This document shows positions 27,282 through 50,463 of a DNA stretch of 64,000 nt, piece by piece. The notes beneath the pieces were generated by a model, which was given only the letters and a program-made list of their open reading frames with translations, ran no database searches and was not told the DNA's origin. The number at the start of each line of letters is the position of its first letter. Position 1 is the first letter of the stretch. Source of the DNA: an uncultured Planctomycetaceae bacterium (GTDB lineage: Bacteria; Planctomycetota; Planctomycetia; Isosphaerales; Isosphaeraceae); NCBI GenBank assembly GCA_963833985.1, contig CAWIAD010000002.1:1216001-1280000 (forward strand), read 5' to 3'. Position numbers and translations under genes: made by a program.

Positions 27282-27636
27282 CGAGCGGTAAGGCGTCAGG
27301 GCGAAGGCAAGAAATGCCTGTTGGGCCGGTGGTTCATCACCGTTTACTTATGGGGGATCGGCCCCCGGCGATGCTGAACCCCGGTAGCCGTTCCCTCAAC
27401 TCCCTGGTTCACCCATTGACACCGGCCAGGAGAGGACGTCTACTCTTTCGGTGCTCGAGGGCGCAGGTTGTGTCGAGTCGAAGGCTCTTCATTCTCACGT
27501 CCGGCGCGGCGCATGCCTGAAATCGTCGCATCGATTCGTCTGCATCGGATACGAAACCTTCATCGTTCGCGAAGATCCTGGCGCCGGCTCTGACCTATCT
27601 ACCGGCCGGGCTGAGAAGTTCTACAGGGAGCGGCCC

Positions 27637-29046
27637 TTGGCTTTTCCAGAGAAGGCGGCTGCGAGCCCTTTGGCAGAGAGTGATCAGCCCAGCGAACTGG
27701 TCCGTACCCCACTCCCTGGACCTTTGGGCAGCATGCTCCTCGAGCGGATGAAGACGCATCCTTGCCTGGCCGGCTATACGGATCCGATGCAGGCATCAGA
27801 GCGGGTCTTCCTGGCGAGCCAGCATGATGGTTATCTCTGGGATGTGGATGGGAATCGGTTCATCGACTTCGCCTCGGGCTGGGCGACGAACAACGTCGGG
27901 CACGCCCCGGCGGAGATTGTTGACGCTGCGTCCTCGGCATTACGCGAGCTGGGAGCGGTTTGTTGCACCCCGGGATTCGTGCCCTTCATCCGTTATGAAT
28001 TCGCGGAGAGGCTCCTCACGACCTTCCCCGCCCACCTGCGGCGCGTGGCCCTCTGTGCGACCGGAAGCGAGGCCGTGGAGGCGGCGACGAGATTCATGCG
28101 CGCCGCGACCGGGCGGCCGAATGTGCTGACCACCTACACCAACTTCCACGGGTTCTCCTATGCGGGACTGGCCGCGGGTCCATTCCATGCCCCGTGGCGC
28201 GACACGGCCACGCAGGCGATTCCCTTCTATCTTTACACGCCCTACGCCACCTGCGGGCGTTGTCCGCACCGACTCGATTACCCCTCGTGCGATCTCTGGT
28301 GCGTGCAAGCCATCGAGGAGTATCTGCTGCGTCACCAGGCCGCACCGGAGACCGTCGCCGGGATGATCGTGGAACCGGTGCAAGGTGAGGCCGGAGTCTG
28401 GGTGCCGCCCAGGGAGTATCTGCCCCGGCTGGAGAAACTCTGCCGGAAGTATGGCTGGCTCATGTGCGTCGACGAGGTGGAATGCGGGTTCGGGCGCTGC
28501 GGACGGATGTGGGCGTTCGAGTCGAGTGGCATCTTGCCCGATCTGGTAATCGTCGGCAAGGGCATCGGCGGGAGTCTGCTGCCGCTGGCGGCAGTCGTGG
28601 GGACGCCGGAGGTCATGGACCGAAGGGTCGTCTGGGGTAGCACCTACGCAGGCCAGCCGGCCGCCTGCGTGGCAGCCATCAAGGCCCTGGAGCGACTTCA
28701 GCGCGACGGCCTCGTGGAACGGTCCGCCCGGCTCGGCGCCGCCGGACTGGAGCGGCTTGGACGCTTGTGCGAGAGCAGCACCATCGTGGGCGCGGCCCGG
28801 GGGCAGGGGCTATTCCTGGGGCTGGAGCTGGTCAACGATCGCACCGGCAACATTCCCTCGCCGGAACTGGCACATCGGGTTTATGACGAGTGCCTCTCTC
28901 GTGGCCTGTGCCTGCTCTTTCTGTCCGTGACTCCCACCGTGCGTGTGGCACCTCCCCTGGATATCCCCGAAGATTTATTCTTCCGGGGTCTGGGCATCAT
29001 CGAGAACGTTATCCAAAACCTGCTTCCCGACGCGTATCATTCATGA
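27637..29046 (+). CDS. Class III PLP-dependent aminotransferase (GabT-like)
   Basis: TPLPGP, DVDGNRFIDFASG, TGSEAVE, FHG, VEPVQGEAG, DEVECGFGR, VGKGIGG (PLP Lys). Start placed at a TTG with GGGAG RBS (uncertain). Confidence 0.88.
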   Translation: MAFPEKAAASPLAESDQPSELVRTPLPGPLGSMLLERMKTHPCLAGYTDPMQASERVFLASQHDGYLWDVDGNRFIDFASGWATNNVGHAPAEIVDAASSALRELGAVCCTPGFVPFIRYEFAERLLTTFPAHLRRVALCATGSEAVEAATRFMRAATGRPNVLTTYTNFHGFSYAGLAAGPFHAPWRDTATQAIPFYLYTPYATCGRCPHRLDYPSCDLWCVQAIEEYLLRHQAAPETVAGMIVEPVQGEAGVWVPPREYLPRLEKLCRKYGWLMCVDEVECGFGRCGRMWAFESSGILPDLVIVGKGIGGSLLPLAAVVGTPEVMDRRVVWGSTYAGQPAACVAAIKALERLQRDGLVERSARLGAAGLERLGRLCESSTIVGAARGQGLFLGLELVNDRTGNIPSPELAHRVYDECLSRGLCLLFLSVTPTVRVAPPLDIPEDLFFRGLGIIENVIQNLLPDAYHS

Positions 29047-29429
29047 TCAACCACCCACATAAAGTCGATGTGCTTGGCAGGCATCTGGTTGCCGATCTGA
29101 GTGGGATCAGGCAAACGCTCCTGCTTGATCCGGACGAGATCATGAACGCGCTTGAGCGTGCCGTTTCCTCGGCGGGGTATCATGTCGTTGATCGTCTCAC
29201 ACATGTCTTCAGCGAGTTCGGGTGCGGCTTCACGGGTGTGCTGATCCTGGCCCAGTCCCACGCAATTGTCCACACGTACCCGGAGGCGTGCTACCTGGCC
29301 CTGGACATTTTCGGCTGTGGAACCCATGACCCGCACGTGGTCGTCAATCAACTGATCCATGAATTGGGACCTCAATCAACCTGCTCTCGAGAGCTTGTTC
29401 GAGCGCCTGCCACCAGCGAGTGTTCATAA
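29043..29429 (+). CDS. speD: Pyruvoyl-dependent S-adenosylmethionine decarboxylase-like proenzyme
   Basis: GRHLVADL, GFTGVLILAQSHAIVHTYPE, LDIFGCG; ATGA overlap with the aminotransferase. Confidence 0.8.
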   Translation: MINHPHKVDVLGRHLVADLSGIRQTLLLDPDEIMNALERAVSSAGYHVVDRLTHVFSEFGCGFTGVLILAQSHAIVHTYPEACYLALDIFGCGTHDPHVVVNQLIHELGPQSTCSRELVRAPATSECS

Positions 29430-29458: not shown

Positions 29459-31330
29459 TCATTCTTCAAGTTCCATGCAGCAGGGCAGGCTGCCGATCGC
29501 GAACCGACAACCCTCGATGTAGACGAAGTCTGCGCGGAATGGTCTTGGCGGCCAGGGACCGCTCGCCTCGCAGACCTCCTCGCAGAATCCGGCTGAGTCG
29601 GCCGGCCAGTCCCATCGTGCACTCAGCGACGTGAGGGGCGGAACATGCAGCAGGACGGCTGCACCTCTGCGCAACGTCAGTGCCGGATCGATAGCGAATG
29701 ACCGAGGTGTTCGGCGGGTGAACCGGATGGGAGGAAATCCATCCGGCGCATCCTCGACGATCCCGCAACGCACGCAAGACTTCAGTCGTCTCGCCGACGC
29801 GCCCGGGATCCGCATCGAGTACAGTTCGGTGCACAGGGCCTGCCCGCAAACAGGACAGGGAGGACCGTGCGACGAGGTCTCCACCAGCTCGGCCAGCTTC
29901 TGCCAGGCATCGAAAGCGCGGCAGCCCCATGCCGAGAACAGATCCAGCAAGCTGCGGCGCAACTCGGATCTGGCGGCGTCGGCCCCGTCCCCGCAGTCGC
30001 CCCCGAGAAACATTCGCATCTGGAGCGCATCGATACTGCCCATGGCATGGTCGCGTCGCAGCTCCGTCGCAGGGGGCATGCGATTGGACTGGAGCTTGAT
30101 GATCGTCCTGATGAGATCGAGGTCGCCGGAGTCGGATGGGTCGACGGGCGGGACCTCTGGCAGCACGCAGGGCTGATCGGGAGGGACGGCTGACTGCTCC
30201 TGCCTTGGTCCGGGAAGCGGCACGCTGACGAGTGGATCTCCCAGCAGGCAGAAGCGCACGCCGAAGTGTTGCGCCGCGGGCGACCGTAAGAAATGGGTGA
30301 GGGCTGCTCCCACGGGAACTCCCCTGTCGAGGTGATCCGTCAGGTAAGCCGTCATCCGTGGAGACCCGTTGAACAAACCCCATGAAGTTACGACGGCCCC
30401 CAGACGGGGGTTGTTGGCGATGCGCGATGGGAGGGCCCAGGCCTGGTCGACGACCGAGGGCTGCAAGAGAACGCCCCAGCATGTGGCCCAGACGAAGATC
30501 CGCGCGGATAGATCGTCGGGGTCCATGAGCAGCTCGGACTGGAGCACTTCCTCGAGCGGCAAGTCATGCCGGTGGCAAATTCCCGTGACCTGGCAGCCGG
30601 GTGGGCGCAGGGGGTCCGGCCGAGGGGGCGGCCTGCGCATGGGACACAAGGTCAGCTTGCCCAGGAAGGCGTCCATGCCATCGGAATGTGAAAAAACGGA
30701 GAGCACCGCCGGACCACGACCGACCGCGTCCCGCAGTTCGGCGGCCAACGCCCGCGCCCCGAGAATCTCCCGGCCGGAGAAGGTGAACCTGGGCATCTCG
30801 AGTCCCGGGTAGAGCTCGATGGCCCGCGTCGGGGCCGGGCCTGCAAGCACCGCCGCCGCCGAACGAACCAGCACCTGGCCCCGCAGGCTGTCGCGGTCGC
30901 TTGCGAATAAAATACCGGTCGCCGGTTCCACGGGCTCGTCTGGATACAGGGCGTTCATCAATTCCAGGGTAAGTTGATCCGTGGAGGTGATGAGTACGGA
31001 AGGATGAGTCTGCCCGGCAAGCTGGCTTACGCTCTCGATGCTCTGATAGCGCCGGCCCGTGAGGTGAGCGTACAGGTTGCCAAGATCGCTTCCCAGGTGA
31101 TCCAGGTGTAGGCCGACGACGAGCGCGAGGTTTGCCGCGGGCGCGTCGGACCTAAGGTAAGTCTCCCGTTCCTCGCGAAGCTCGGCATGGAAGAGAGACG
31201 CAAGCTGCTTGAGTGACGCGAAGTCAGTCTCATTCTTGAGCGGCCAGACGGGTTCACCGGTACGGTTGACCAGAAGGTCCGTCGCCAGCGTCCATTGGAC
31301 CGGCAAGGCCTGGAGTTTTCGGTGCATCAT
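29459..31330 (-). CDS. Putative clan CD (C25/CHAT-like) cysteine protease with C-terminal zinc-ribbon motifs
   Basis: Strand-His LSVFSHSDG, strand-Cys IFVWATCWG, GAVVTSWG, closing FCLLGDP; CPVCG...CVRCG. Confidence 0.55.
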   Translation of the reverse strand: MMHRKLQALPVQWTLATDLLVNRTGEPVWPLKNETDFASLKQLASLFHAELREERETYLRSDAPAANLALVVGLHLDHLGSDLGNLYAHLTGRRYQSIESVSQLAGQTHPSVLITSTDQLTLELMNALYPDEPVEPATGILFASDRDSLRGQVLVRSAAAVLAGPAPTRAIELYPGLEMPRFTFSGREILGARALAAELRDAVGRGPAVLSVFSHSDGMDAFLGKLTLCPMRRPPPRPDPLRPPGCQVTGICHRHDLPLEEVLQSELLMDPDDLSARIFVWATCWGVLLQPSVVDQAWALPSRIANNPRLGAVVTSWGLFNGSPRMTAYLTDHLDRGVPVGAALTHFLRSPAAQHFGVRFCLLGDPLVSVPLPGPRQEQSAVPPDQPCVLPEVPPVDPSDSGDLDLIRTIIKLQSNRMPPATELRRDHAMGSIDALQMRMFLGGDCGDGADAARSELRRSLLDLFSAWGCRAFDAWQKLAELVETSSHGPPCPVCGQALCTELYSMRIPGASARRLKSCVRCGIVEDAPDGFPPIRFTRRTPRSFAIDPALTLRRGAAVLLHVPPLTSLSARWDWPADSAGFCEEVCEASGPWPPRPFRADFVYIEGCRFAIGSLPCCMELEE

Positions 31331-31942
31331 TGCTGTCCGCTCTCGAATCGGAGGACCTGGACAATGGCGGGCGCCTCACCCGACTACGAGTGCCACCGGC
31401 ACGGTATGATCTCCGTCGAGTGGTCGATCACGGGTCGCTTCGCCCCTTCCGGTCGCCATGCGCACCAGCTCATCGAGGAAATCATCATGCAGGACGGTTC
31501 GATTGTCAAAGTCTTCACCCTGTGCGGAAGCCGGCCGGGGCAGGCCCGATCCTCCGGCTTCACGCCGTCGTCTGCACGATTCTCGAAGCGCAGGCAGACC
31601 CGACGCTGAGAGCGAATGAAGGCGAAAACAAAAAATGCCAGTTCTCGCGTGGCCGTCCTTGACACCTTCATTATGAACCTCGTTCTGTCCGCGACTCGCG
31701 CGTGGCTCCCGAGCCAGCCAGGGAAATCCAGCAGGGACTTGATTTCTTTTGACAATGATTCCAGAACAGGGATGCCAGGGCGTGCCGCGATCACGCGGAG
31801 GCCTGCGCGATGCGGGCGGGATTCGCCACGGCCGTGGGAGTGCCGTCGCAATCTGCTGGTTTGAAGCCGGTCTGGCGGAGTGCATCGGCCAGGACCTGTG
31901 GTTGACCCACTGGAAGACCCTCCTCATGGAGATCCGGCCCCG

Positions 31943-32755
31943 ATGATCACGCGAGAGCAGGTGAATCGCTACAGTGAGCACGGTTACCTTGTCGTACCGA
32001 ACCTTCTGGGCGCGTCTGAGCTGGAGAAGTTGAGAGTCGCGGTGGCCGCTGTGGAACAGGCGGCAAGTGCGCTCGATGCGACCAATGATCGTTTCCAGCT
32101 CGAGGCCGAGCCCTGCGATGGCCGGAAAGTCGCCAACGCAGTCGCCGACCCGATCCTCGATCACCCCGGGTTCTTCGAGGTTCTCAGTCTGCCCCATGTC
32201 CTCGACGTCGTCGCGGGGCTTCTCGGTACGCCGAACGTCAAGCTCCACCACACCAAGCTCTTCATGAAATACCCCGGCTCTCCGTGGTCGATTCACTGGC
32301 ACCAGGATTTCTCGTATCTTCTCCACTGCAATTTTGACCTGCTGGCGGTGATGTTCATGCTCGATGGATCGGACGACGAGAACGGGGGCCTGAAGGTCGT
32401 GCCGGGCTCGCATCGCGAAGGACCGATCGAAGTGACAAATCCCGAGGCAGGCTGGATGATCGACCTGGCGCCCTGGGCCGCCGGACGTCTCGTGGAGTCG
32501 CTCACGGTCCCGCCTGGGGGAGCTTCCATACACCACTGCTGCCTGGTCCATTCCTCCGCCCCCAATCGATCCACGCGTCCGCGCCGGGCGTTCATCGTCG
32601 AATATTCCGCCGCAGACAATTATCCGATCGCGGGCAGGACTGACTACGCTGGCTATGGGACGATGCTCCGCGGTTTGGACCCTCGGAGAGCTCGCTGCAT
32701 CGCGGGAGACTGGCGCATCCCGCCGGCACGCAGCCGAAGTCGACACCGCCAGTGA
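31943..32755 (+). CDS. Phytanoyl-CoA dioxygenase family Fe(II)/2OG oxygenase
   Basis: YSEHGYLVVPNLL, WHQD, ENGGLKVVPGSH, VHSSAPNRS...RR. Confidence 0.9.
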   Translation: MITREQVNRYSEHGYLVVPNLLGASELEKLRVAVAAVEQAASALDATNDRFQLEAEPCDGRKVANAVADPILDHPGFFEVLSLPHVLDVVAGLLGTPNVKLHHTKLFMKYPGSPWSIHWHQDFSYLLHCNFDLLAVMFMLDGSDDENGGLKVVPGSHREGPIEVTNPEAGWMIDLAPWAAGRLVESLTVPPGGASIHHCCLVHSSAPNRSTRPRRAFIVEYSAADNYPIAGRTDYAGYGTMLRGLDPRRARCIAGDWRIPPARSRSRHRQ

Positions 32756-33137
32756 GCACCCGTTTCCGAGCATGAAGCCCGGCCCGGCCCTCAGGTCTCT
32801 GGTCATCGGGCCGCCGCTCCCAGAGACTGGCCAAGCAGGGCGTGCCCGTATTCGCAGGCGACGGGCGCGTGCACTGACCGGTCAAAGTGTGGCGCTGCGC
32901 CGTTGTCGCGACCGGCTGAGTGCGATGCTCCCATTGCCGAACGGAAAAGTTCGGGAGCCGCGGCCGGCGTTCCATGATTCATTCGGAACGAGTAGTGATC
33001 CAGAGCCTTGACACGGGCGTTCCGGCGCGTTCAAAATCATTTCGCTCAAGTCGGCATCGGAGATTCTCCGGTGCACGGACAACTCTATGTGCACCTCAAC
33101 GGGCCAGCAAATCCTTTCTCAAGGCCGGAGTGACACG

Positions 33138-33464
33138 ATGAGCGAACAAGATCGGATCAAGGACGCGCTCAGCAAGATGACCGAGGATCAGGTCGAGGCC
33201 ATCAGACGTGTATTGACATCCACGTACGAGGAAGGTCCCACGAAGCTCACGCCGGAGCAGATCAAGAGCCTGGCGGCTGAGTCTGCCGAATTCCACAGGG
33301 CACAGAAACAGGTGGCCGAAGCGGTCGGCGTGCTGTGGAACGCTCGTCTCGATCTGGCCATCAAACTCGGAGATCCGGAAGACGTACAGCGTGCCATGAT
33401 GCGACCGGTCGACTTTTACGACAACTGCGACTGCGGTGGCACCGTAGGCACCCAGTGCTGGTGA
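33138..33464 (+). CDS. Candidate RiPP precursor peptide (108 aa; helical leader, Cys/Gly-rich C-terminal core ending in Trp)
   Basis: GGAG RBS 7 nt before ATG; all three Cys lie in the last 12 residues (CDCGGTVGTQCW); directly upstream of SPASM radical SAM genes. Confidence 0.8.
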   Translation: MSEQDRIKDALSKMTEDQVEAIRRVLTSTYEEGPTKLTPEQIKSLAAESAEFHRAQKQVAEAVGVLWNARLDLAIKLGDPEDVQRAMMRPVDFYDNCDCGGTVGTQCW

Positions 33465-33481
33465 CTCATGCTCCTGGCAGG

Positions 33482-33508
33482 TCGCACCTTGCGTAGCGCG
33501 AGGTGAGA
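33482..33508 (+). promoter_or_regulatory. Stem-loop after the precursor gene (mRNA stabiliser or partial terminator)
   Basis: CACCTTGCG-TAG-CGCGAGGTG: 9-bp stem with one G-U pair, extendable; 17 nt after the stop; no U-tract. Confidence 0.45.
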
Positions 33509-33651
33509 TTCTTCAACGGAATGGTGACAGGGCGAGTGCGTCCCCGAGCTTCCTGCGCATGGGACGGCTCGCAACCCGGTCAGCCTCTACGGACTGTCTG
33601 GGACGGAAGCACTCTGTTGATCGAAACTCGACAACCGAGGTGGCGAAGACC

Positions 33652-35037
33652 ATGAACGTAACGACCTGGATGCCATCGCGCTTCAACCTCGCAACTCGGG
33701 ACGCGGACGGTTCCCTGCTGCTCTACAACAGCTACATGGGCGCCTTCGCCCGGATCCCGGAGGCCGAAGTGCCACGGGTCCGATCGGCCCTCGACGGCGG
33801 ATTGTCCGAGGACCCCACTGGCATCCTGGCGGAGCTGTGCATCAACGGCTTCCTCGTACCCGACGGCGTCGACGAATTCAAGAGGGCCGAGGCGCTGCGG
33901 ACCGAGGAGTACACGACCAGCCGCGAATTACAGCTCGTGCTGCTTCCGAACGAGCAGTGTAATTTCCGCTGCAAGTACTGCTCGCAGACGTTTACACGAA
34001 AGAAGATGAAGCGGGAAGTCATTGAAGGTATCGTTGCGCACGTTCGATCGAGAGCTGCGGATCTGTCAGTACTCACGGTCGGGTGGTTCGGCGGCGAACC
34101 ACTCACCGCCATCGAGATCATCGAGGAGGTCGCAGGTCGCTTGCAGACGATCTGTGCAGAGTACGGGATCTATTACTCCAGCAGTATGACCACGAATGGT
34201 TACCTGCTGACGCCGCGGGTCGCGAAGATCCTCTTCCGCGCGGAGGTCCGAGGATTCCAGATCACGCTCGATGGTCCCCAGGAACAGCACGATCGGTTGC
34301 GGGTGCTCGGCGATGGCAAGACCGGCACCTTCAAGACGATCCTCAGCAACCTCAACGCCCTGCGCGACCAGCCGGAAGCGTTCAAGGCGGTCATCCGCGT
34401 CAATTTCGACGCGGAGTCGGTGGATTGCATGGACCCTTTCCTTGATCTGGTGCGCTCCGAGTTCGCTGCGGATTCGAGATTCTGCCTCGATTTCCACCCC
34501 GTGGGAAAGTGGGGCGGGCCCCATGACGAATACCTCTCGGTCTGCGGGATCGACGATGGCCGAACCTACTCGGTGGATCTGGCCAGGAAGGCGGCCGAGG
34601 GAGGGTTTGAACCTTACGCCCTGCGTGAGAAGCTCAAACCGCTTGGCAGCAAGTGCTACGCGGCCAGACCGCATTCGTTTGTCATCGGATCCGACGGGAC
34701 CGTCTACAAGTGTACGGTTGCGCTGGAAGATCCGAGGAATCATGTTGGCCGCATCACCGGCGAGGGCGCGCTGCTCATCGATGCCGACAAGCACGCTCAA
34801 TGGATCGGCACGGGAGACAATGAGGACGCCGGTTGCCATTCGTGTTTCTTCCGGCCGTCGTGTCAGGGGAACGCCTGCCCTTTACATCGAATGAACACGA
34901 GTGAGCGTCCCTGCCCGACGATCAAGACGAATATCGAACAGGTCCTGTACACGATCTCGGCAAGCCATGCCATTAAGTCGGCGGGCCGACGGGCCGAACC
35001 GGTGAAGGAGCCCGCCCATCTCACAGTCGATTCCTGA
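33652..35037 (+). CDS. Radical SAM/SPASM peptide maturase 1 with probable N-terminal RRE
   Basis: CNFRCKYC, WFGGEP, TTNGYLL, QITLDG; SPASM CYAA...GTVYKC and CHSCFFRPSCQGNACP..C; N-terminal SRFN...LLLYNSYMG. Confidence 0.92.
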   Translation: MNVTTWMPSRFNLATRDADGSLLLYNSYMGAFARIPEAEVPRVRSALDGGLSEDPTGILAELCINGFLVPDGVDEFKRAEALRTEEYTTSRELQLVLLPNEQCNFRCKYCSQTFTRKKMKREVIEGIVAHVRSRAADLSVLTVGWFGGEPLTAIEIIEEVAGRLQTICAEYGIYYSSSMTTNGYLLTPRVAKILFRAEVRGFQITLDGPQEQHDRLRVLGDGKTGTFKTILSNLNALRDQPEAFKAVIRVNFDAESVDCMDPFLDLVRSEFAADSRFCLDFHPVGKWGGPHDEYLSVCGIDDGRTYSVDLARKAAEGGFEPYALREKLKPLGSKCYAARPHSFVIGSDGTVYKCTVALEDPRNHVGRITGEGALLIDADKHAQWIGTGDNEDAGCHSCFFRPSCQGNACPLHRMNTSERPCPTIKTNIEQVLYTISASHAIKSAGRRAEPVKEPAHLTVDS

Positions 35038-35041
35038 TTCC

Positions 35042-36088
35042 GTGACTCGCATGGAAATCGCGGACGATGCGACGGCGTCCGGCGCGTCCGGGACCCTGTC
35101 GTCATTCTTCGCGGCGTGGATCGAGCCTTTGTTCCCCCGGGACGAGCAAACGCGGATGCTCGAGGGCTTCGCATTCCTCGTCGACCGAGCCTTTGCCGCT
35201 CCGCTCGGTCCGGGAAGTCGCAGGTCCAATCTCTGTGCGGACGGGACCCCGCTGGAGATGTCGCTGGCGCTTGACAACAGCGGTCGCTGGGCGATCCGGT
35301 TTGTATGCGACGTGGCGGCAGGGTCGACCGCCGACGAGTCGATCGGGTTCCATCGCGCACTTGCGGACAGGGTGATCCCGGACTCCGGTTCACGCGCGGA
35401 GGAACTCGACTGGCTCTTCGGCAAACACCTCTCGGGTGCGCTCGAAAGCTCGCGGTTCCGGGTCTGGTACGGGATGGGCTTTGCTCCTCAGCACATGGAT
35501 GTCGGTAAACTTTATTTCAATACCGAATGGTTGTCGGCGGTCCAGGTGCACGAGATCGCGGCTCGGTTTCTGTCGCCGGAGATGCTCGACGGCCTGGCGT
35601 CGATTCCTTTGCTGAAGAGGGAATCCTACGTCGGCGTCGGTTACGATTTTGACCGCGCAGGGCTACGAAAACTGAAAACCTATGTCAGATTGGCCGGGCT
35701 CGACGTCGCTGCACTCGAGAGCAGCGTGGACTGCCATTGTCGCGGCCGGCAGGGCCGCTTTCGGCAACTCCTGGAGAGGGTAGCCGAGGCCTGCGGTCGG
35801 CCCTACGAGGACAGCTTCGTCGCTTCCGCCGGCTACGTTCCTCGCTGGGGGAAGCGAGAGTTCAAGGTCTACCTCTCGCTGGCGGCCTGGGGCATACGCG
35901 ACTTCGCGGCGACGGCTCCGTTGTTGCAGGCGATTCTCGCCGGCTGGGGATTTCAGGCGGGCACTCTTGACACCTCACCCGGCCCCGCAGGGTGCGTGCC
36001 GACGCTCCTGGCGATCGGCGTGGATGATGATCGAGAGCTGGCGTCAATCTATTTCAAACCCGAGCTGGATCCCGGAGTGTGCCCGTGA
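35042..36088 (+). CDS. DMATS-type (ABBA barrel) aromatic/indole prenyltransferase
   Basis: SNLCADGTPLEMSL (the DMATS DG.P.E.S motif) and repeated K-x-Y strands KLYFN, KTYVR, KVYL, plus IYFKP. Confidence 0.7.
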   Translation: MTRMEIADDATASGASGTLSSFFAAWIEPLFPRDEQTRMLEGFAFLVDRAFAAPLGPGSRRSNLCADGTPLEMSLALDNSGRWAIRFVCDVAAGSTADESIGFHRALADRVIPDSGSRAEELDWLFGKHLSGALESSRFRVWYGMGFAPQHMDVGKLYFNTEWLSAVQVHEIAARFLSPEMLDGLASIPLLKRESYVGVGYDFDRAGLRKLKTYVRLAGLDVAALESSVDCHCRGRQGRFRQLLERVAEACGRPYEDSFVASAGYVPRWGKREFKVYLSLAAWGIRDFAATAPLLQAILAGWGFQAGTLDTSPGPAGCVPTLLAIGVDDDRELASIYFKPELDPGVCP

Positions 36089-36360: not shown

Positions 36361-37908
36361 ATGAACGCCGTTCAGGATTCTTCGATCCGCTCCTTCTCTT
36401 ATTCGGGAACGGTCTACGATTTCGACACTGCCACGCTGCGTTTCCTGGCGCGCGATCGGTCGGGGCATCCTGCGGAGACGGCCTGTGGATGCCGGGAACC
36501 GGAGAGCCCCGCCGAGCCAGCGATGCGTCCGGCCGGCATCAACTTCATCACTCTGAACGTGGCCCACGACTGCAATATGACCTGCCCCTACTGCTTTGCC
36601 AAGGAAGGGCTCTACGGCGGACCGCGGCAGCTCATGACGGCGGAGACGGCCAGGCGCTGCGTGGACTGGCTGATCAAGGTCTCGGGGGCGCACTCGGATT
36701 GCTTCCTGCGCTTCCTGGGCGGCGAGCCGCTCCTGAACTTGCCTGTGATGCGCGCAGCCATGGAGTACGCCCTTGAGCAGGGGGCCGCACGGGGCAAGCA
36801 CATCCACTTCAGCGTGAATACCAACGGCACGATCTTCAGTGAGGAGGTTGATGAGCTTTTGCGGAAGTACCGCGTGACTATCTCGATCAGCATGGACGGC
36901 ACGCGGGAGGCCCATGACACGTATCGAGTTTTCCGATCCGGGCGGGGGAGCTACGACACGGTCGTGCAGAACGTCCCGAAGTTCCTTGCGATCGATCCCT
37001 ATGCGATGGTGAACGCCACCCTCACGGCCGACAACGTCGACCTCTTCGAGTACGCCGTGCATTTCCGCAGCCTGGGGTTTCAGATCATCCGGTTCGCGAT
37101 CGTCGGCACCGCGGTGCCTGGAGTTGCCGTGCGTCGCGAGGAATTGCTGGATCGCATCCGGACCAACTATGACCGGCTTGCCGAGTACTATGCTGATGAC
37201 CTGAGACACGGACACATCTGGTACCTGTCAGACTTTTACAAGTATTTCGAGAACCTGCGCTTCCTTCACCCACGAATGAATCGGTGCGGGGCCGGGACGT
37301 CGTACGTGAACATCGACGTGAATGGAAAAGTGCACCTTTGCCACCGCTTCACCGCCGACAAAACTCAGGAAATCGGCGACGTCTCGAATGGCCTGGATCA
37401 GCTCGCGGTTCCCCACGAGATCCGGAGGATGAACCAGCTGCTGCCCATGAACGGCTCGGTCCCCTCTGGCGTGCAGCCGTCCCCGGTTCCGTCGCGAGGT
37501 AATTCCGTCAGCGTCGCGCTGCCGGTCATCGGCCAGGTCTCAGGGGCCTCCTCCTGCGGGAGTCATGTAAGCAGACCGCATGCGGAGGATCCGCTCACCG
37601 CCGTGCATCGCCGGCTTGATGGAGAAGTGATGCTCGAGCAGCGCGGCTCTCTGGCCGGCGGCAATAATCCGTGCTCGATTTGCGACATTCGCTTCTTGTG
37701 CGGGGGCATGTGTTTCCACGATGGGGAAATCCTTCACGGGGACCTGTTCGGCGGTCCGGACGTTTTCAAATGCGAAGTGGATCGACACCTGGCCAAGATT
37801 GCCATCTGGCTCGTCGACCAGATCCACGCGCTGGACGATGGCGTCTTCGCCGAGCTGGACAGGTTGCACCAATGCTCGGCCCAGCGCACCAAGGGCAAGG
37901 AGCACTGA
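36361..37908 (+). CDS. Radical SAM/SPASM peptide maturase 2 (CteB/PapB ranthipeptide-like)
   Basis: LNVAHDCNMTCPYCFA.EG.YGG, FLGGEPLLN, NTNG, SMDG; SPASM CGAG...GKVHLCHRF and CSICDIRFLCGGMCFH..C. Confidence 0.92.
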   Translation: MNAVQDSSIRSFSYSGTVYDFDTATLRFLARDRSGHPAETACGCREPESPAEPAMRPAGINFITLNVAHDCNMTCPYCFAKEGLYGGPRQLMTAETARRCVDWLIKVSGAHSDCFLRFLGGEPLLNLPVMRAAMEYALEQGAARGKHIHFSVNTNGTIFSEEVDELLRKYRVTISISMDGTREAHDTYRVFRSGRGSYDTVVQNVPKFLAIDPYAMVNATLTADNVDLFEYAVHFRSLGFQIIRFAIVGTAVPGVAVRREELLDRIRTNYDRLAEYYADDLRHGHIWYLSDFYKYFENLRFLHPRMNRCGAGTSYVNIDVNGKVHLCHRFTADKTQEIGDVSNGLDQLAVPHEIRRMNQLLPMNGSVPSGVQPSPVPSRGNSVSVALPVIGQVSGASSCGSHVSRPHAEDPLTAVHRRLDGEVMLEQRGSLAGGNNPCSICDIRFLCGGMCFHDGEILHGDLFGGPDVFKCEVDRHLAKIAIWLVDQIHALDDGVFAELDRLHQCSAQRTKGKEH

Positions 37909-38015: not shown

Positions 38016-39449
38016 ATGGTCGACTGCGTCCTGGTCTACCCGAACCCGTCTCGCGATAGCCCCAATCGCAACCTGGCGCTGGGCATTCTCTTCGTCGGTG
38101 CGGCTCTCGAGGAGCAGGGCTTCTCCGTCGCCTACATCGACCTGCGCTTCGACACGAGGCAGGAACTCGCCGGCTTGCTGACTGGCGGTGTGCGCGTGCT
38201 CGGCGTCTCCGTCATGACCGGGAACCAGTGCAAGGAAGCCGCGGAGGTACTTCGCATGGCGAAGACCCTCGCGCCCACTGTCCGCACGGTCCTTGGCGGT
38301 GTGCACCCGTCGATGCTGCCACAGGAATGCCTGGATGAACCCGACGTCGACTTCGTCGTCACCGGCGAGGGCGAGCAGACCATGGTCGAGCTGGTCCAGG
38401 CCATCCTCGACGGCACTCACGATTTTGGCGGCATCACGGGGCTGGGGTGGAAAGATCACGGGGAGACGAAGCGGAACCCCGACCGTCCGTTCATGGACCT
38501 GGCAAGTGCGCCGTTCCCGATGACTCCGGCCAGCAGGCGCTTCTACGAGATTGCCGCCCGTACGGGTCACGTCAGTTACTTCACCACGCGCGGCTGCCCT
38601 TTCCGTTGCAGCTTCTGCTACAACCTGGCCTTCAACAAGCGGAAGTGGCGCTCGCTTCCGATGGAGCGACTCGAGGAGGATCTCCGGCGGGTCCGCCGCG
38701 AAGTTCCGTTCGACCACGTCTACTTCGTCGACGATTACGTCGGCCATCGCGTCGAGCGTCTCCGCGACCTGGCCAGCACCATGAACCGCATCCAGCTCAC
38801 CTGGCACTCCTCGATCCGCGTCAACGACATCAGCGCCGAGACGGTGAAGATCCTGGCCGACGGGAATTGCAGGCTGATGCTTCTGGGTGTCGAATCGGCC
38901 GCCGAGGACGTGCAGCAGGGAATCCTCGTGAAGGACTATCGCCAGGGCATCGACGACGTGCGCCGTTGCGTCACGAGCATCGCGCGGACGAATATCACGC
39001 CGCTCTACAGCTTCATGTACAATGTCCCCGGCGAGACGTCCGAGCAGCTCAAAGAGTCATGCGAGCTGGCCGAGTGGATCCATCGCACCGATCGACGGGC
39101 GCGGATCGGCTTCTACGCGTACACGCCCTACCCGGGAACGCCCCTCTATAATCAGGCCCTCCAGTCGGGCTTTCGGCCCCCCTCGCGGCTGGAAGGCTGG
39201 GGACAGATGAGCCTGAGCAACGACCTCAACCCGAAGCTGCGCGACCTCTACTACATCGCCGGACTTCGCTTCCGGGGCCGCAAGGGCGACCGCACGGATG
39301 AGAACTTCCCCGGGCTCCAGCGGCTGCGCATCCTGCCTTTCGAGGCCATTTCACGAATGCGCTGGCGAATGCGGAGTTTCGTCTACACGGACTACGAACG
39401 CCGGATGGTCACCAACATGATCGAGCACGCCACGCGCCGTGCGCGCTAG
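38016..39449 (+). CDS. Cobalamin-binding radical SAM enzyme (class B methyltransferase-like)
   Basis: VLGGVHPS, VTGEGE, TRGCPFRCSFC, YFVDD, GVES, TPYPGTPLY. Confidence 0.92.
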   Translation: MVDCVLVYPNPSRDSPNRNLALGILFVGAALEEQGFSVAYIDLRFDTRQELAGLLTGGVRVLGVSVMTGNQCKEAAEVLRMAKTLAPTVRTVLGGVHPSMLPQECLDEPDVDFVVTGEGEQTMVELVQAILDGTHDFGGITGLGWKDHGETKRNPDRPFMDLASAPFPMTPASRRFYEIAARTGHVSYFTTRGCPFRCSFCYNLAFNKRKWRSLPMERLEEDLRRVRREVPFDHVYFVDDYVGHRVERLRDLASTMNRIQLTWHSSIRVNDISAETVKILADGNCRLMLLGVESAAEDVQQGILVKDYRQGIDDVRRCVTSIARTNITPLYSFMYNVPGETSEQLKESCELAEWIHRTDRRARIGFYAYTPYPGTPLYNQALQSGFRPPSRLEGWGQMSLSNDLNPKLRDLYYIAGLRFRGRKGDRTDENFPGLQRLRILPFEAISRMRWRMRSFVYTDYERRMVTNMIEHATRRAR

Positions 39450-39469: not shown

Positions 39470-42085
39470 ATGATGGAGGACACAACGGAAATCTGCATCT
39501 GGGGGGCCGGCCTGGTGGGCTATTCGCTCGCGTGCGCCCTGGCGGAACGCGGGCGGAAGTGCATACTGGTCGATATCTCCCGGGATGTCGTCGAGCGCAT
39601 CAACGCCGGTGCTCCCCCCCGTTCACTGCATGGTGTGTACGGCTCTCAGCCCCTGGATGCCGGTGTCCGCGGTCGCTTGCGGGCGACGATGGAGCCGTCG
39701 CTGGCACTGTCGCCCGAGCACCCTGTGCACATCATCGCGGTGCCCACGGAGCGTGGGGGCCTGGTTTGCTCGGACCACCTGCGTGAGGTGGTCGAGAATG
39801 TCGCCCGTGCGGAATCCGCGGCGCGTCCGCTCTACTTCCTGATCGAGTCCACCGTCTCCCCCACCTGGATCGATGGCATCGTCCACGCGACGTTCCGAGC
39901 CGCCGGTTGGAGGCACGGCGAGGATTACCACGTTGGCTGTTCACCGCGGCGCGATGTCTTCGGCGATCCTGCTTATGCGATGCAGCAGATCGACAAGGTT
40001 TACGGTGCCGACAGCGAGCAGGGTGCGGAACTGATGCAGGCACTCTACACTCCGCTCTGCCGGGGACTGCATCGGGCGCCCGATGCTCGCCATGCATCGC
40101 TCACGAAGCTCGTGGAGAATCTCTACCGGCACCAGGCGATCCTGCTGGCGAATCGGCTCGCGGCCGCGCTCCCCGGCTTCGACGTCGCGGAGGTGCTCCG
40201 CCTGGCCGCGACGAAATGGAATATGCAACTCTACCATCCCTCCCTCTGGGTCGGCGGCTACTGCGTTCCGCTCGCGAAGGATTACCTGGCGTCCTCGGTG
40301 GAACCGCAATGGAGGGACGATCTCCTCCCGGTCGAGGATATATCAAGGATGGAAAAGTTGTTCCTGGATGCCCTTTTTGCCGGAGCGTCGGGCCGGCGGG
40401 TTGGTCTGCTCGGGCTTTCGTACGCGCCGGGTCTACGTATCGTGGTGAACGCTCCGGCGCTGCGGGTCGTGCGTTACCTGAAGCGTCGGGGCCTCGAGGT
40501 GGCTGTCCACGACCCCTATTTCAGCGAGACCGAGATCCTCGAGCTCGCAGCAGTGCCCAGGTTCGATTTCCCGAGCGAGCTGCGAGACTACGATGACGTT
40601 GTGCTGCTGACCGCGCACGTGGAGTATAGCCGGATCTCCGATCGCGAGCTGGCCGCTCATCTGCCGGCGCGGGCCCGGCTCATCGACAACTGCGGCATCT
40701 GGAGACGGCGCCGCTGGGCGGAGGGGATCCGCTACGTCGAGATTGGCGGGGCGGGCTTTCGCGGCACCGACATGCCGGATGGGCAGGCAATTCAAGCCTC
40801 GGAGATCGAGGCCTCCGACTGCCCCGTCGCGTGCTCACCCGCCAGGAACCGGGCGTACCTGGAGCGGCTCGAGCGGGAAGGTGAGCTGCCAGGGTTTTAT
40901 ACACACGTGGATCGCATCCTCCAGATCGACCGAGACTACCTGCACGCGCAATTCGACGGTGAGCGAATGAATATCCCGCAGCTCGGGGAACGGGTGCGGG
41001 CCCTACGAGGCAAGCCGATCGCCGACCACTCCGACGCCCAGATCGATACCATCTGTGCTCTTGCAGTCTATGGGATGGCGTGGGTGCGGCTCGAATACGT
41101 CGATATGCGAGTGACGATGGAGCGCGCCTGTCGCTACCTCGTGGATACGGCCGAAACTTACAATCGGAACCTCCTGGAGATTGGAGAGGAGCCAGCCCGA
41201 TGGCCGCCGGGATCTCCCTGGTGGAAGATCGCGTCGCAAATCCCGGAGCTACGCGAGCGGATCGACGGGCATTATTTCCGGCTCTCTCTCATCAACGGCG
41301 CGAACTGGTACCGGAGGGAGGTCTTCCTGAGGAAGCAAGAGCTCGAGCCGCAGCCAATGCCCCGGACTCTTGCCGGCGCATTCGCAGCGCATTCGCCGGT
41401 TCCCAGGCTGATCGACGCGAGCGATCCGCACGAATCGCTCCGTGCCCTCACGAGGGCGGTGCTCGAGCGAGATCAATCCCCCACAACTTTGCTGGTGACA
41501 TTGATGAAGGCGGCGACCGAGGACCCTTGCATCGACGCCCACCACACGACACTGCTGTGCCCGCGGGGCACGATGCTGGAACGTCCCTGGGAGATGTCGC
41601 CAGAGGACTTCCTCGCGTACGTCGTGTTCCGCCCGGGGTTCGAGCCGCCGGTCGGCCAGGGCGTGCACGACTTCCGCACGATCCAGAAGGCGATGCTGGC
41701 TCATCACGCGGCGAAAAAAACCAAGCTGGCAAGGCGTTACAAGGCGCGCTACGGCCCTGGCTCGGTGGCGCAGCTTGCCGACAATCTTGGTGATCTGGGG
41801 ATCTACTACAATGAGGACGCGCACCATAAGGGCCACCAGGTTGCCGGCGTCGCGTCCGCCATGCGTTATCTCATGCCCGTGCGGGTGCGGCGCGAGGAAA
41901 AGGAATTCCGGATCGAGGGCCTGACCGACTTCCGGGTCACACGCATGAGCCGGGCGGAACGAGATCGCTTCCGCCTGGAGGACTTCCCGCTGTTCCATGA
42001 CTACGGCGGCTGGGCGCGTACCATCCTGGAGACTGCGTATTCGATGGGCTTCGTCTTTCCCCGAATGCTCGAGAACTGGCGATGA
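39470..42085 (+). CDS. NDP-sugar (UDP-GlcNAc/ManNAc/Glc) 6-dehydrogenase fused to a ~430-aa domain of unknown function
   Basis: GAGLVG, AVPT, IESTV, KLVEN (catalytic Lys), GGYCVP (catalytic Cys), LGLSY, HDP, LTAH; unassigned C-terminal half with EDAHHKGH. Confidence 0.82.
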   Translation: MMEDTTEICIWGAGLVGYSLACALAERGRKCILVDISRDVVERINAGAPPRSLHGVYGSQPLDAGVRGRLRATMEPSLALSPEHPVHIIAVPTERGGLVCSDHLREVVENVARAESAARPLYFLIESTVSPTWIDGIVHATFRAAGWRHGEDYHVGCSPRRDVFGDPAYAMQQIDKVYGADSEQGAELMQALYTPLCRGLHRAPDARHASLTKLVENLYRHQAILLANRLAAALPGFDVAEVLRLAATKWNMQLYHPSLWVGGYCVPLAKDYLASSVEPQWRDDLLPVEDISRMEKLFLDALFAGASGRRVGLLGLSYAPGLRIVVNAPALRVVRYLKRRGLEVAVHDPYFSETEILELAAVPRFDFPSELRDYDDVVLLTAHVEYSRISDRELAAHLPARARLIDNCGIWRRRRWAEGIRYVEIGGAGFRGTDMPDGQAIQASEIEASDCPVACSPARNRAYLERLEREGELPGFYTHVDRILQIDRDYLHAQFDGERMNIPQLGERVRALRGKPIADHSDAQIDTICALAVYGMAWVRLEYVDMRVTMERACRYLVDTAETYNRNLLEIGEEPARWPPGSPWWKIASQIPELRERIDGHYFRLSLINGANWYRREVFLRKQELEPQPMPRTLAGAFAAHSPVPRLIDASDPHESLRALTRAVLERDQSPTTLLVTLMKAATEDPCIDAHHTTLLCPRGTMLERPWEMSPEDFLAYVVFRPGFEPPVGQGVHDFRTIQKAMLAHHAAKKTKLARRYKARYGPGSVAQLADNLGDLGIYYNEDAHHKGHQVAGVASAMRYLMPVRVRREEKEFRIEGLTDFRVTRMSRAERDRFRLEDFPLFHDYGGWARTILETAYSMGFVFPRMLENWR

Positions 42086-42714
42086 ACCGGACGATGCTTG
42101 CGCTCATGGCCCACCCGGACGATGCCGAGCTGTGCATGGGGGGGACAATCGCCCGCTACGCGCACGCCGGGTTCCGGGCCGAGATCGTGATCTCGTCGCT
42201 GCCGGACTTCCCGGACGTCCGTCGTGCCGAGGCTGCTCAGGGGGCTGCGGTCCTCGGCGCAGGTGTCCGCATCCTCGCTCCGCCCTCGAAACGCGAGACC
42301 TGGCAGGTCGAGGACTTTCCGGTGTACCGGCTGGTGGCGGCCTTCGACGCGATCCTGGAGGAGCTCCAGCCGTCCCTCGTATTCACGCACTGGCCCAAAG
42401 ACACGCACTTCGATCATGTTCGAGTGAGCCAGGCAGCCTTCTCGGCCACACGGAGGCACAGGGTCGACCTGTACCTGTGCGAGCAACCCAACCTCTACGC
42501 GGCCACCGTGGAGCCGATGAAGTTGAATACGTATGTGGACGTATCCCAGTTCATGGATAAGAGACTGGACAGCATCGCCTGCCACCGGTCGCAGACACAG
42601 GGGAAGACCTATTCGGAGCACGTCCGTGCCCGCACCCGGTTCCACGGGGAACGGACCGGCTGCCAGTATGCGGAGGCCTTCTGCTGCGCAATCCAGCGGC
42701 TGAGGATTGATTGA
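42082..42714 (+). CDS. PIG-L/LmbE family N-deacetylase
   Basis: AHPDDAE and DTHFDH zinc motifs, HRSQ, YAEAF; ATGA coupling to the upstream gene. Confidence 0.92.
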   Translation: MNRTMLALMAHPDDAELCMGGTIARYAHAGFRAEIVISSLPDFPDVRRAEAAQGAAVLGAGVRILAPPSKRETWQVEDFPVYRLVAAFDAILEELQPSLVFTHWPKDTHFDHVRVSQAAFSATRRHRVDLYLCEQPNLYAATVEPMKLNTYVDVSQFMDKRLDSIACHRSQTQGKTYSEHVRARTRFHGERTGCQYAEAFCCAIQRLRID

Positions 42715-42716
42715 GC

Positions 42717-43574
42717 ATGGGGCATTCCAGTCCTGTTGGGTTCTCGACAACGGTCATCGGGCGTTCGACCGACCTCAGCCGTCTGCTGGAGCTCGAACCC
42801 GACATCATCGAGCTGTGCGGCTATTCCGCCGCGCAGTGGCCCTCAGTGCGGGCGCAAATCGAGCGGTTGGGCATTCCCGTAGGGCTCCACTGTCCTTTGC
42901 CGTTCGAAGGATTCGTCCCCCACTTCGATATCACGGGACCAGACTCTGCGCGACAGGAAGAGGCTTTTGCGCTGGTCCGCCAGACACTTCGAGCTGCTTG
43001 CGAAGTGCAGGCCCGGTACGTCATTGTCCATTTCCCGAGCGTGCTCCGTGAGATTCTCGACGAGGATGACGCTCTCGAATCTCGTCGTGCTGCGGCGCTG
43101 TGCAGCGCACGGCGGATCGCGGAGCTCAGCCAGCAATACGGGGTGGCGATCCTGCTGGAGAACGTCGGCCCCAATCCTTATCTCTATCTCGGCGAGCACT
43201 TCACCTGGTTGTTCGGCCAGGTTCCCGAGCTGAGGATGTGCCTCGATTTCGGCCACTCCCATGTCCTGCCGGGAGCCGAGGACGTGTATCGATTTGCCGA
43301 GCAGGTCGCACCATTCGTCTCCGGGCTCCACGTCTACAATGCGACCCGGGCGGGCTATCGGGTCGGTTTCCACGAGGCACCGCTGGCTGAGCACGATCCC
43401 GACGAAGGCTGGATGGACCTGTCCAGGCTGCTCGCCGTGATGGCGAAGAGAGCCACGATTCCTTATTTCATTTTTGAGTACTCCGAAGATAGTGGACAGG
43501 ATGTGGAAGCCGTCCGGCGCGGCGTGCAACACTGGACCGCGACCTGGAGGAGTCTATGCCGCGAGGAGGGTTAA
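42717..43574 (+). CDS. Sugar phosphate isomerase/epimerase (xylose-isomerase-like TIM barrel)
   Basis: GLHCP, IVHFP, LLENV, CLDFGH, LHVYN, IFE metal-ligand pattern. Confidence 0.8.
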   Translation: MGHSSPVGFSTTVIGRSTDLSRLLELEPDIIELCGYSAAQWPSVRAQIERLGIPVGLHCPLPFEGFVPHFDITGPDSARQEEAFALVRQTLRAACEVQARYVIVHFPSVLREILDEDDALESRRAAALCSARRIAELSQQYGVAILLENVGPNPYLYLGEHFTWLFGQVPELRMCLDFGHSHVLPGAEDVYRFAEQVAPFVSGLHVYNATRAGYRVGFHEAPLAEHDPDEGWMDLSRLLAVMAKRATIPYFIFEYSEDSGQDVEAVRRGVQHWTATWRSLCREEG

Positions 43575-44707
43575 GAGGCTGGCTCCGTGGGCAACGGCTC
43601 CGTGCGCGGGGGGCGTCGCTCGGGGCGGGAACTTACGTCAGCCAGGGAGTGCGGATCAGCGCCCCGGACATCCGGATCGGGGCCGGCGGTTTCCTCGCCC
43701 CGGGCGTCGAGATCCAGGCGGATCGTGTCGTGATCGGCGACCGCTGTCACGTTGCGGAGGGGGTTTCACTTCGCGCAGAGCGCATCGAGATCGGCGAGAA
43801 TTGCATCCTGTTTCCGGGCGTTCGCATTCAGACGCTCGGCGAATTCCGCATGGGCCCGTACGGGAAGATCAGCCGTGGCGCGACGATCAAGGGGGGAAGC
43901 GTCCGGATCGGGTCCGAATTCTGGATGAACGCCGGCGCCGAGATTGGCGGCGGGGGATGGCGCAGTCGGACAGGTTGTTTCGAGGCGGGGGACCGCTGTC
44001 ACGTGGGCCGGTTGACTCACATCAATGTGACCGAGCCGGTCGTCTTCGGCGACGATACGGCGGTGGGCATGCACTGTATCCTGGCAACACATGCGCACTG
44101 GCAACCCGCAACGCAGGGCTATCCGCGGCTGCGCGGGGCCATCCGGCTGGGGTCAGACGTGGCGATCTATTCGGGAGTGATCATATCTCCGGGCGTCACC
44201 GTGGGTCACGGCGCGGTAATCGCGGCGGGCGCGGTCGTTCAGACGGACGTACCGGATCTGTCCCTGGCGGCGGGAGTGCCGGCACGAATCGTCCGTGAGC
44301 ACTTTCCCCGCGGTGGGGGAGCGCCTGTCGCCCTGGCACTGCTCTGCGAGTACATGGAAACGCGCTTCCCGGGTGTATCGTACCACTCGAAGGCCGGGCG
44401 TTTCATCGCCCAGCCCGCCACCGGAGCCCAGTGCATTCTGTATGACGACGATGAGAGTGCGATGGACCACGAGTCACGGCCCGGGTCGCTGATCGTCGTC
44501 ACGCTGAACCGGGCTGTTGCGGACGCGGCACAATCCGGAGCCGAGACCGTCTTCAACCTCGGTGATCGCGAGTTGACGGGCCGCTCCACGGAATTGAGCG
44601 AGTCGCTGCGTCAGTTCTTTTTCAGCGCGGGCCTGCGCTTCAAGTACCGAGGATACCAGCGCGGACCGCTGGACTACGCGCAACTGATCGAGTCCGGAAT
44701 CGAGTGA
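43556..44707 (+). CDS. Hexapeptide-repeat (left-handed beta-helix) acyltransferase
   Basis: Many [IV]G..[CV].[IV] repeats; ISPGVTVGHGAVIAAGAVV..DVP...AAGVPARIVR. Confidence 0.88.
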   Translation: MPRGGLRGWLRGQRLRARGASLGAGTYVSQGVRISAPDIRIGAGGFLAPGVEIQADRVVIGDRCHVAEGVSLRAERIEIGENCILFPGVRIQTLGEFRMGPYGKISRGATIKGGSVRIGSEFWMNAGAEIGGGGWRSRTGCFEAGDRCHVGRLTHINVTEPVVFGDDTAVGMHCILATHAHWQPATQGYPRLRGAIRLGSDVAIYSGVIISPGVTVGHGAVIAAGAVVQTDVPDLSLAAGVPARIVREHFPRGGGAPVALALLCEYMETRFPGVSYHSKAGRFIAQPATGAQCILYDDDESAMDHESRPGSLIVVTLNRAVADAAQSGAETVFNLGDRELTGRSTELSESLRQFFFSAGLRFKYRGYQRGPLDYAQLIESGIE

Positions 44708-47224: not shown

Positions 47225-47332
47225 GTCCTCGGATTAGTGGACCTGCTGGCAGGCACATGCTGCGCCATCCGGAATGCGTGGGGCTTCCTCCCGGAGCCGC
47301 ATCGACGACCCGGGGGCGCGCTGGCTCCCCGC

Positions 47333-50366: not shown

Positions 50367-50463
50367 TCCGTCAAAGGGGGACCTGCGTCATGAACTGGAA
50401 GCGGCTCGCCGCGCGCGTTCGACGGGGGGGTCTCTCGGACGCTTGAGACACGGAAGCTCATGT

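Follow-up and report, generated by a model that had tools for sequence, protein, structure and literature searches.

A new precursor peptide family adjoining a radical SAM/SPASM enzyme in an uncultured Planctomycetaceae bacterium, and its possible maturation by thioether formation and prenylation

The window analyzed here is the whole stretch of 64,000 nucleotides, and it comes from a host genome of 10.2 Mb with 65% GC. At 33138..33464 (+), translation and homologue searches identify the gene of a precursor peptide of 108 amino acids (P0001). As reported in the preliminary description, its cysteines occur only at positions 97, 99, and 107, and W108 is the terminal residue. The good ribosome-binding site claimed there is also present: GGAGT at 33127..33131 (+), 7 nt ahead of the ATG. 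We favor this start over an upstream ATG at 33087 because P0002, a homologue with 71% identity, likewise begins with MSEQD. The GC content at codon positions 1, 2, and 3 of the ORF is 0.62, 0.42, and 0.72. About 100 nt upstream of the precursor, a putative σ70-like promoter (TTGACA-18-CAAAAT, 33008..33037, +) is proposed from its consensus match of 10/12. Directly 3' of the stop codon there is a predicted stem-loop (33480..33510, +), which may stabilize the precursor mRNA. The fold energy of the 191-nt gap 3' of the precursor was compared with shuffled sequences (z = -2.4; 6 of 200 shuffles equally stable). The part of the window from 27.3 to 58 kb has no substantial DNA match in nine genomes of the same genus. 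It is therefore an island.

The AlphaFold2 model of the precursor, built from a 43-sequence alignment, has a pLDDT of 74 and a pTM of 0.40. It contains four helices (residues 3-12, 16-29, 39-77, and 80-88), followed by an unstructured tail of low confidence. This agrees with the helical leader proposed earlier. The model gave no Foldseek match at E≤0.001, and a search of the Atlas with the precursor gave no usable match. Residues 66-72, in a long predicted helix, form the leader motif LWNARLD (33333..33353, +). In the family alignment this motif reads L-W-N-A-x-L-D, with W67 in 66 of 68 aligned members, and it may serve in enzyme recognition.

A profile search recovered 42 proteins besides the precursor at E≤0.1; for 41, E was ≤1e-10. 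At the 50% clustering level, the family has 56 representatives. Our counts refer to 96 distinct sequences. Six locus-derived sequences were added, duplicates were removed, and five entries were taken out: P0078 and P0079 (long and unrelated), and P0051, P0055, and P0080 (fragments). One match in G035 (E 1.7e-4) lies inside a 499-aa frame and was treated as chance. The host itself has a paralogue on contig C1 (~963.7-964.0 kb), with the core FYDNHGCDC and the tail SQCW. The 42 further proteins, this paralogue, and a fixed gene neighbor place the homology above chance. The precursor is rare: it was found in 2 of 121 genomes of the host's order, in 1 of 301 Bradyrhizobium genomes, and, within that class, in 1 of 401, which is the seed. 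The search of plasmids returned no match. Four loci (L003, L004, L006, and L011) have tandem precursors, of which only the second ends in Trp.

The core D95-N96-C97-D98-C99 (33420..33434, +) follows the family consensus D-[N/D]-C-x-C. CxC is present in 95 of 96 members. The residue before the first Cys (position 96) is N in 74, D in 19, and G in 2 sequences (n = 95). Position 95 is D in 81, N in 7, and another residue in 7, which makes D/N in 88 of 95. Position 94 is Y in 45, W in 14, F in 11, and another residue in 25 (n = 95). Three residues ahead of the second Cys, N or D stands in 93 of 95 members, and the core of 94 of the 96 contains N(D)-x-x-C, a motif of the NxxC type. The C1 paralogue has two inserted residues (DNHGCDC), and N-x-x-C is still present. 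After C99 the residues are variable or absent: several precursors stop 0-6 residues later, and N/D reaches at most 10% at positions +1 to +5. Trp ends 46 of the 96 sequences, preceded by Y (19), C (15), S (5), F (3), or others (4). It had been predicted that homologues would keep a YDNCxC...CW tail. C97 and C99 are indeed nearly invariant, but the penultimate Cys is limited to 15 of the 46 Trp-ended members.

Among 68 members scanned against Pfam and NCBIfam, none matched Nif11, NHLP, or SCIFF at E≤0.01, which confirms the earlier impression that the leader is of none of these types. The same Pfam scan did pick up an NHLP-type protein in L003. The precursor family itself is covered by no model in either database (68 members scanned), and no description of its core and leader motifs was found in the open literature (PMC, bioRxiv). 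The suspected new family thus extends to 96 sequences with no model in either database. It is real, new, and unnamed. A conserved leader, a variable core, a short ORF, and linkage to a maturase give it the general features of a RiPP precursor, as had been supposed. The FlmA and OhkA precursors were considered as relatives and rejected: they are unrelated and end in DD(I/V)LF. A joint mention of any two of FlmE, OhkG, and radical SAM was not found in the open literature.

The next gene, rSAM1 (33652..35037, +), encodes a radical SAM/SPASM enzyme of 461 aa, identified by HMM, alignment, and locus comparison. It has an N-terminal RRE-like region of ~100 aa. Its SPASM cysteines (335, 354, 395, 398, 404, 409, and 421) and C298 are invariant in the family. 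CxxxCxxC and the seven SPASM cysteines, expected of a ranthipeptide SPASM enzyme, are invariant in 9 of 9 aligned rSAM1 enzymes. We compared 13 precursor loci. The next gene is visible in 12 (L005 ends too early), and in all 12, the window included, it is an rSAM1 orthologue with 46-67% identity; L003/L006 and L008/L009 are close kin, so these linkage counts overstate independence. The search for homologues suggested in the preliminary description therefore found both the Cys core and the same downstream rSAM. The ten family rSAM1 enzymes form one clade (FastTree support 0.83). We consider rSAM1 very probably the cognate maturase of the precursor.

The best NCBIfam match of rSAM1 is TIGR04463 (220.9 bits, model positions 1-426 of 438). 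This score is far below the cut-off of 525 bits, which places rSAM1 outside the family. Its best families also include Clo7bot, CefB, and geopeptide maturases, none of which reaches its cut-off either. A PDB sequence search with the SPASM fragment returned no match. At six active-site-proximal positions, rSAM1 has S,F,T,T,T,V, and CteB has F,F,T,S,H,Q. CrpC, from the available text and by eye, has F,F,S,T,W,E, so rSAM1 differs from it as well. After the AuxI Cys, rSAM1 shows T355-V356 in place of the His of CteB and PapB. The missing His does not exclude ranthipeptide chemistry because CrpC also lacks it.

CrpC of Methanococcus voltae is a member of TIGR04463 that installs ranthionines, according to the available part of PMC13692751. 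Its SPASM cysteines (333/352/390/393/399/403/422) are spaced like the seven of rSAM1; CrpC belongs to the family that rSAM1 matches best, and both have the RRE-rSAM-SPASM layout. Since a TIGR04463 member with a similarly spaced SPASM makes ranthionines, C-S bond formation is the probable chemistry of rSAM1. Thioether formation at Cys, suggested in the preliminary description, is thus among the likeliest reactions. The substrate CrpA, in the same available text, resembles the precursor in its Cys-bearing C-terminal region and folded N-terminal domain. However, CrpA is a repeat protein, whereas the precursors here have 70-125 aa and one D-[ND]-C-x-C motif. With three Cys in 108 aa, P0001 is unlike the large, repetitive, Cys-rich substrates of TIGR04463. 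In CrpA the Cys precedes the acceptor; here the proposed acceptor would precede the Cys. Unlike the loci described here, the CrpC system has no prenyltransferase or protease in what is available of PMC13692751.

The third gene (35042..36088, +) encodes a DMATS/indole-type ABBA prenyltransferase of 348 aa, assigned by profile and alignment. All eight PDB matches of its profile are indole prenyltransferases (best E 3e-8), and Pfam Trp_DMAT scores 20.2 bits, under the gathering score of 25. E72, which has a role in indole binding, is invariant in 5 of 5 sequences. The gene follows rSAM1 in 7 of 9 informative loci and is missing at L004 and L010. In G029, the prenyltransferase and a squalene-hopene-cyclase-like domain (E 3e-5, which falls short of the gathering score) form a fusion of 686 aa. 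The host has a similar prenyltransferase-terpene cyclase fusion on C1 (~965.9-967.9 kb; L002:5865-7930), frameshifted near residue 530. Its two frames have 66% and 79% identity to the intact G029 copy, and the frameshift may be an assembly error.

The terminal W108 (33459..33461, +) is the predicted prenylation site. The preliminary description had named Trp or Tyr as a possible substrate of the prenyltransferase, and Trp prenylation is among the likeliest reactions, given the DMATS-type neighbor and the 46 Trp-ended members. The class of the enzyme, the Trp at the end, and the analogy to MppC lead us to think that the Trp is probably prenylated. The step appears optional, since B. lablabi has a Trp-ended precursor and no prenyltransferase match in its genome. 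The available text of PMC12715784 describes that MppC geranylates Trp after ring closure and needs the leader. Together with NctPC (available text of PMC13290415), these prenylated lanthipeptides combine a thioether macrocycle, ABBA-type Trp prenylation, and a long structured leader. NctPC is also a prenyltransferase-terpene cyclase fusion, the arrangement of G029 and, frameshifted, of C1. The likeness is one of enzyme class and layout. In the MppE system, LanM makes the ring on a Nif11-type leader (same partial source); here the ring would be radical-made on a leader that has no known model.

Upstream of the precursor by 1.8 kb, an unannotated gene (29459..31330, -) encodes a protein of 623 aa with conserved Cys clusters. 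Fold, alignment, and linkage make it a clan CD (gingipain-fold) cysteine protease and a candidate leader peptidase. Its model (pLDDT 87) has Kgp, SAVED-CHAT, and RgpB as top Foldseek matches. It superposes on the gingipain fold with Z 18.6 and an rmsd of 3.1 Å over 258 residues. C284 is conserved in 27 of 27 homologues and H215 in 25 of 27. This modeled caspase-haemoglobinase fold and the conserved His-Cys dyad point to clan CD. No Pfam match to peptidase C25 (PF01364) was found at E≤0.01, and Atlas C25 rows at 0.80-0.81 are leads only. The protein is like RgpB and Kgp (C25) and CHAT/separase in its fold (Z 18.6 and 17.6) and its His...Cys pair. Its identity to gingipains and CHAT proteases is ~9%, and it differs from them in that it matches no Pfam C25 model, has additional Cys clusters, is linked to a RiPP cluster, and shows no evident signal peptide on inspection by eye.

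Of five long loci, three (the window, L003, and L004) have the protease next to the precursor, and two (L002 and L017) lack it there. In Bradyrhizobium, precursor and protease each occur in 1 of 301 genomes. It is the same genome, and they are within 3 kb. Among 121 genomes of the host's order, the protease was found in the host only. G029 (91% complete) has the precursor, the rSAM, and the prenyltransferase-cyclase, and no protease match. On a Rhodococcus plasmid, a distant homologue of the protease has NRPS genes as neighbors, and 17 kb of sequence there include no annotated rSAM. From this linkage, the upstream protease may plausibly be the leader peptidase and would remove the leader, a role about which we are evenly divided. 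The likeliest P1 residue of the cut is R89, though Pro follows it. No description of a clan CD RiPP protease was found in the open literature among the matches listed.

A less favored but possible explanation is that this enzyme is a linked signaling or defense protease, which senses or counters the product. Among its fold neighbors are the CHAT proteases of Craspase, SAVED-CHAT, and DdvA; the protein carries additional Cys-rich domains, and its nearest Atlas clusters are mostly actinobacterial. Its absence beside two loci also fits such a role. However, the family has no other linked protease, apart from an S51 peptidase in L004. A basic residue is found 5-13 positions before C97 in 83 of 95 members, where the background composition predicts ~65; this is a weak fit to an Arg/Lys-type cut. 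In B. lablabi, the S51 peptidase (L004:11730-12431) occupies the place that the prenyltransferase has in other loci, and transketolase, kinase, and oxidoreductase genes precede the cluster (L004:1683-8922).

Other genes of the island surround these four. They encode rSAM2, a PapB/SCIFF/Nif11-like rSAM-SPASM enzyme placed by HMM and tree (36361..37908, +); a B12-binding rSAM identified by HMM, with an approximate start (38016..39449, +); and a PhyH-type 2OG dioxygenase identified by Pfam (31880..32755, +). By locus comparison, all three are specific to this locus. Four co-oriented genes (39470..44707, +), assigned by HMM, encode an NDP-sugar dehydrogenase fusion, a PIG-L deacetylase, a TIM barrel, and a hexapeptide acetyltransferase, and were not seen at other family loci. 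In the first of them (39470-42085, +), the dehydrogenase is fused to a ~440-aa domain that has no Pfam match.

The preliminary description regarded the tail as a substrate for most of its neighbors. This is unsupported. The genes found repeatedly with the family are those of rSAM1, the prenyltransferase, and the protease, the last of which the preliminary description does not mention; at other precursor loci, no orthologue exists of rSAM2, the B12 rSAM, PhyH, or the sugar-type enzymes. Neither C107 nor the tail Thr residues, named as substrates, are conserved across the family. The supposed Asp/Asn beta-hydroxylase neighbor is a weak-match protein 17 kb away, beyond pheST. That these enzymes also tailor the peptide in this host is rather unlikely. 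The island genes are co-oriented and follow at short gaps, and the small ORFs between the prenyltransferase and rSAM2 include no second precursor candidate. Besides, the profile of rSAM2 resembles those of CteB and PapB (F,L,T,S,H,R, with His-Arg after the AuxI Cys), and C107 would be a spare thiol. Against this, the other family loci have none of these enzymes, L002 and L004 contain C-W-ended precursors with no second rSAM nearby, and the many small-molecule enzymes of the ~30-kb island could form a separate pathway.

Several observations concern the surroundings. Class III aminotransferase, SAM decarboxylase, PLP decarboxylase, TauD-like, and DUF3419 genes (27451-29429 and 49008-56531) suggest a separate small-molecule pathway. 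A B12-binding rSAM at 53659-55703 (-) is apparently split over two frames. The pheS and pheT genes at 44780-48529 (-) are the only ones found in the host genome (96% complete). The island PheS shares only 38-45% identity with its counterparts in three same-genus genomes, a very low value within a genus. This sequence divergence suggests that a foreign PheRS has replaced the native one. In L003 (13327-15202), the genes after the prenyltransferase encode a protein with an NHLP leader and a tail of repeated QTW(A/S)DTW, and a second rSAM; nested in the cluster is thus a second RiPP, probably Trp-directed.

We propose the following for the ring. rSAM1 would bind the helical leader and join the Cys99 sulfur to the Asn96 β-carbon, through a Cβ radical and an AuxI-bound thiolate. 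The suggestion comes from the N/D-x-x-C kept in the family, the paralogue, and 7 of 7 sister loci, and from the NxxcB and SycC precedents. We hold the resulting Asn96(Cβ)-S-Cys99 ring to be a reasonable, evenly weighted prediction. The sister clade consists of short, RRE-less relatives with 35-38% identity to rSAM1 and the same Thr-Val/Ile after the AuxI Cys. N-x-x-C was found in 7 of 7 of its loci with an identifiable small ORF (L023, L024, L027, and L031-L034). L028, L030, and L035 had no clear precursor. One sister-clade locus combines a flavoprotein with a peptide ending N-N-V-C, the layout of the syc cluster. There, SycC joins Asn19 Cβ to Cys22 in an AviCamCys (available text of PMC10989515). 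NxxcB, of a streptococcal NxxC ranthipeptide, makes an Asn β-thioether and tolerates Asp (available text of PMC9389541), which matches the 74 N and 19 D at position 96. As those sources present it, both link Asn Cβ to a Cys sulfur within N-x-x-C, the connection that we would expect here. The comparison is by motif and layout: the precursor differs from those described in a leader of ~90 aa, a second invariant Cys, an internal Cys, and the lack of a decarboxylase.

Neither C97, which is as invariant as C99, nor the conserved D95 is accounted for by the N-x-x-C model. Tentatively, and with less confidence than for the first ring, Cys97 would close a second, interlocked i/i+3 ring with residue 94. 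It may instead remain a free thiol. The invariant C298 could fill the open AuxI site of rSAM1, which counts against the N96-C99 model. In addition, RRE-bearing outside relatives are nearer in the tree than the N-x-x-C clade and fit N-x-x-C poorly. The peptides of the Deinococcus relatives show N-I-Y-R-C, N-I-Y-K-C, or D-I-M-C, and one Bacillus peptide shows E-L-R-C-H-C.

The relatives gave other observations. Sister-clade rSAMs (the seven loci above) have ~330-355 aa, no RRE, and a truncated SPASM, and they are widespread. Their precursors share an 'E.D..G.VVI..P.LA'-like leader. Those of Nostoc are annotated 'type A2 lanthipeptide', with no LanM in the 11 kb seen. After a Bacillus rSAM1 relative and a methyltransferase lie two identical, unannotated 27-aa ORFs (L020:5359-5442 and 5543-5626), with a strong RBS and ending in C-H-C-G-E. 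On Deinococcus plasmids (L018:515-6122 and L019), an rSAM1 relative occurs with a luciferase-like monooxygenase and small one-Cys peptides; L018 additionally has lantibiotic dehydratase genes.

It is unlikely that rSAM1 makes thioethers of another connectivity. These would be Cys-first rings (C97-G100 and C99-T102), a D95-C99 ring, or sulfur-to-α-carbon bonds. Cys-first motifs are used by CrpC, of the best-matching family, and PapB likewise has Cys before the acceptor. The D/N at position 95 and the Gly-rich stretches after CxC in many members would also be accommodated. However, the variable or missing residues after C99, with N/D so scarce there, argue against Cys-first rings, and in the sister clade N-x-x-C persists where D95 and a second Cys are absent.

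Even less probable is that rSAM1 oxidizes each Cys without a partner. An SbtM-like thiooxazole (-4 Da) would then turn CxC into a metal chelator. Both Cys are invariant, related NCBIfam families bear names of Cys-rich targets, and C298 could close AuxI. In sulfatase maturases, AuxI is closed by Cys. SbtM has its own NCBIfam model, and no selenobacteriocin-type model is among the best 25 NCBIfam matches of rSAM1. The characterized member of the top family (TIGR04463) makes thioethers, and partnerless oxidation leaves the strict N/D conservation without explanation. SbtM acts in this way on Gly-Cys (available text of PMC9204691). SbtM as a close relative of rSAM1 was dropped; geopeptide-maturase identity is not stated in the available part of that source. 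Finally, a cyclophane synthase joining the Y94 ring to N96 Cβ (triceptide-like aromatic-x-N), with the Cys pair as a disulfide, is very improbable: residue 94 is Y/W/F in 70 of 95 and residue 96 N/D in 93 of 95, but 25 of the 95 have no aromatic residue at position 94, the scores of cyclophane-maturase models on rSAM1 are 44-70 bits vs 221, and the N-x-x-C peptides of the sister clade lack the aromatic residue.

The N96-C99 thioether thus remains the preferred reading of rSAM1. The DMATS-type enzyme would then prenylate Trp108, and the protease would remove the leader. To the observed family, core motif, gene linkage, and enzyme classes, this whole model adds three steps, and we regard it as about evenly poised. 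By the tests run, the system is outside TIGR04463, Nif11, NHLP, SCIFF, and peptidase C25. By analogy, it resembles an N-x-x-C ranthipeptide with lanthipeptide-style Trp prenylation. No description of a ranthipeptide paired with a DMATS enzyme was found in the open literature among the reviews listed. A bolder and improbable reading would be a new RiPP class. Its radical-made thioether rings would be of the i/i+3 type and interlocked: one would link N96 and C99, the other C97 and residue 94, usually at the benzylic carbon of a Tyr, Trp, or Phe. The Trp would be prenylated and, in some hosts, cyclized to a meroterpenoid, and a gingipain-fold protease would be the dedicated leader peptidase.

The predicted product is a small peptide with a thioether ring and a lipid tag, which would most likely serve as a secreted signal or as an antimicrobial. 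If the model is true, radical-made thioether rings would be combined with DMATS-type Trp lipidation, a pairing that we found described only for lanthipeptides. A reaction would be assigned to a wide rSAM clade with N-x-x-C substrates and Thr-Val after the AuxI Cys, whose members occur on plasmids of Nostoc, Streptomyces, Bacillus, Sinorhizobium, and Acetobacter. Peptide engineering would likewise gain a new type of protease in a clan CD leader peptidase. The minimal gene set would be four genes.
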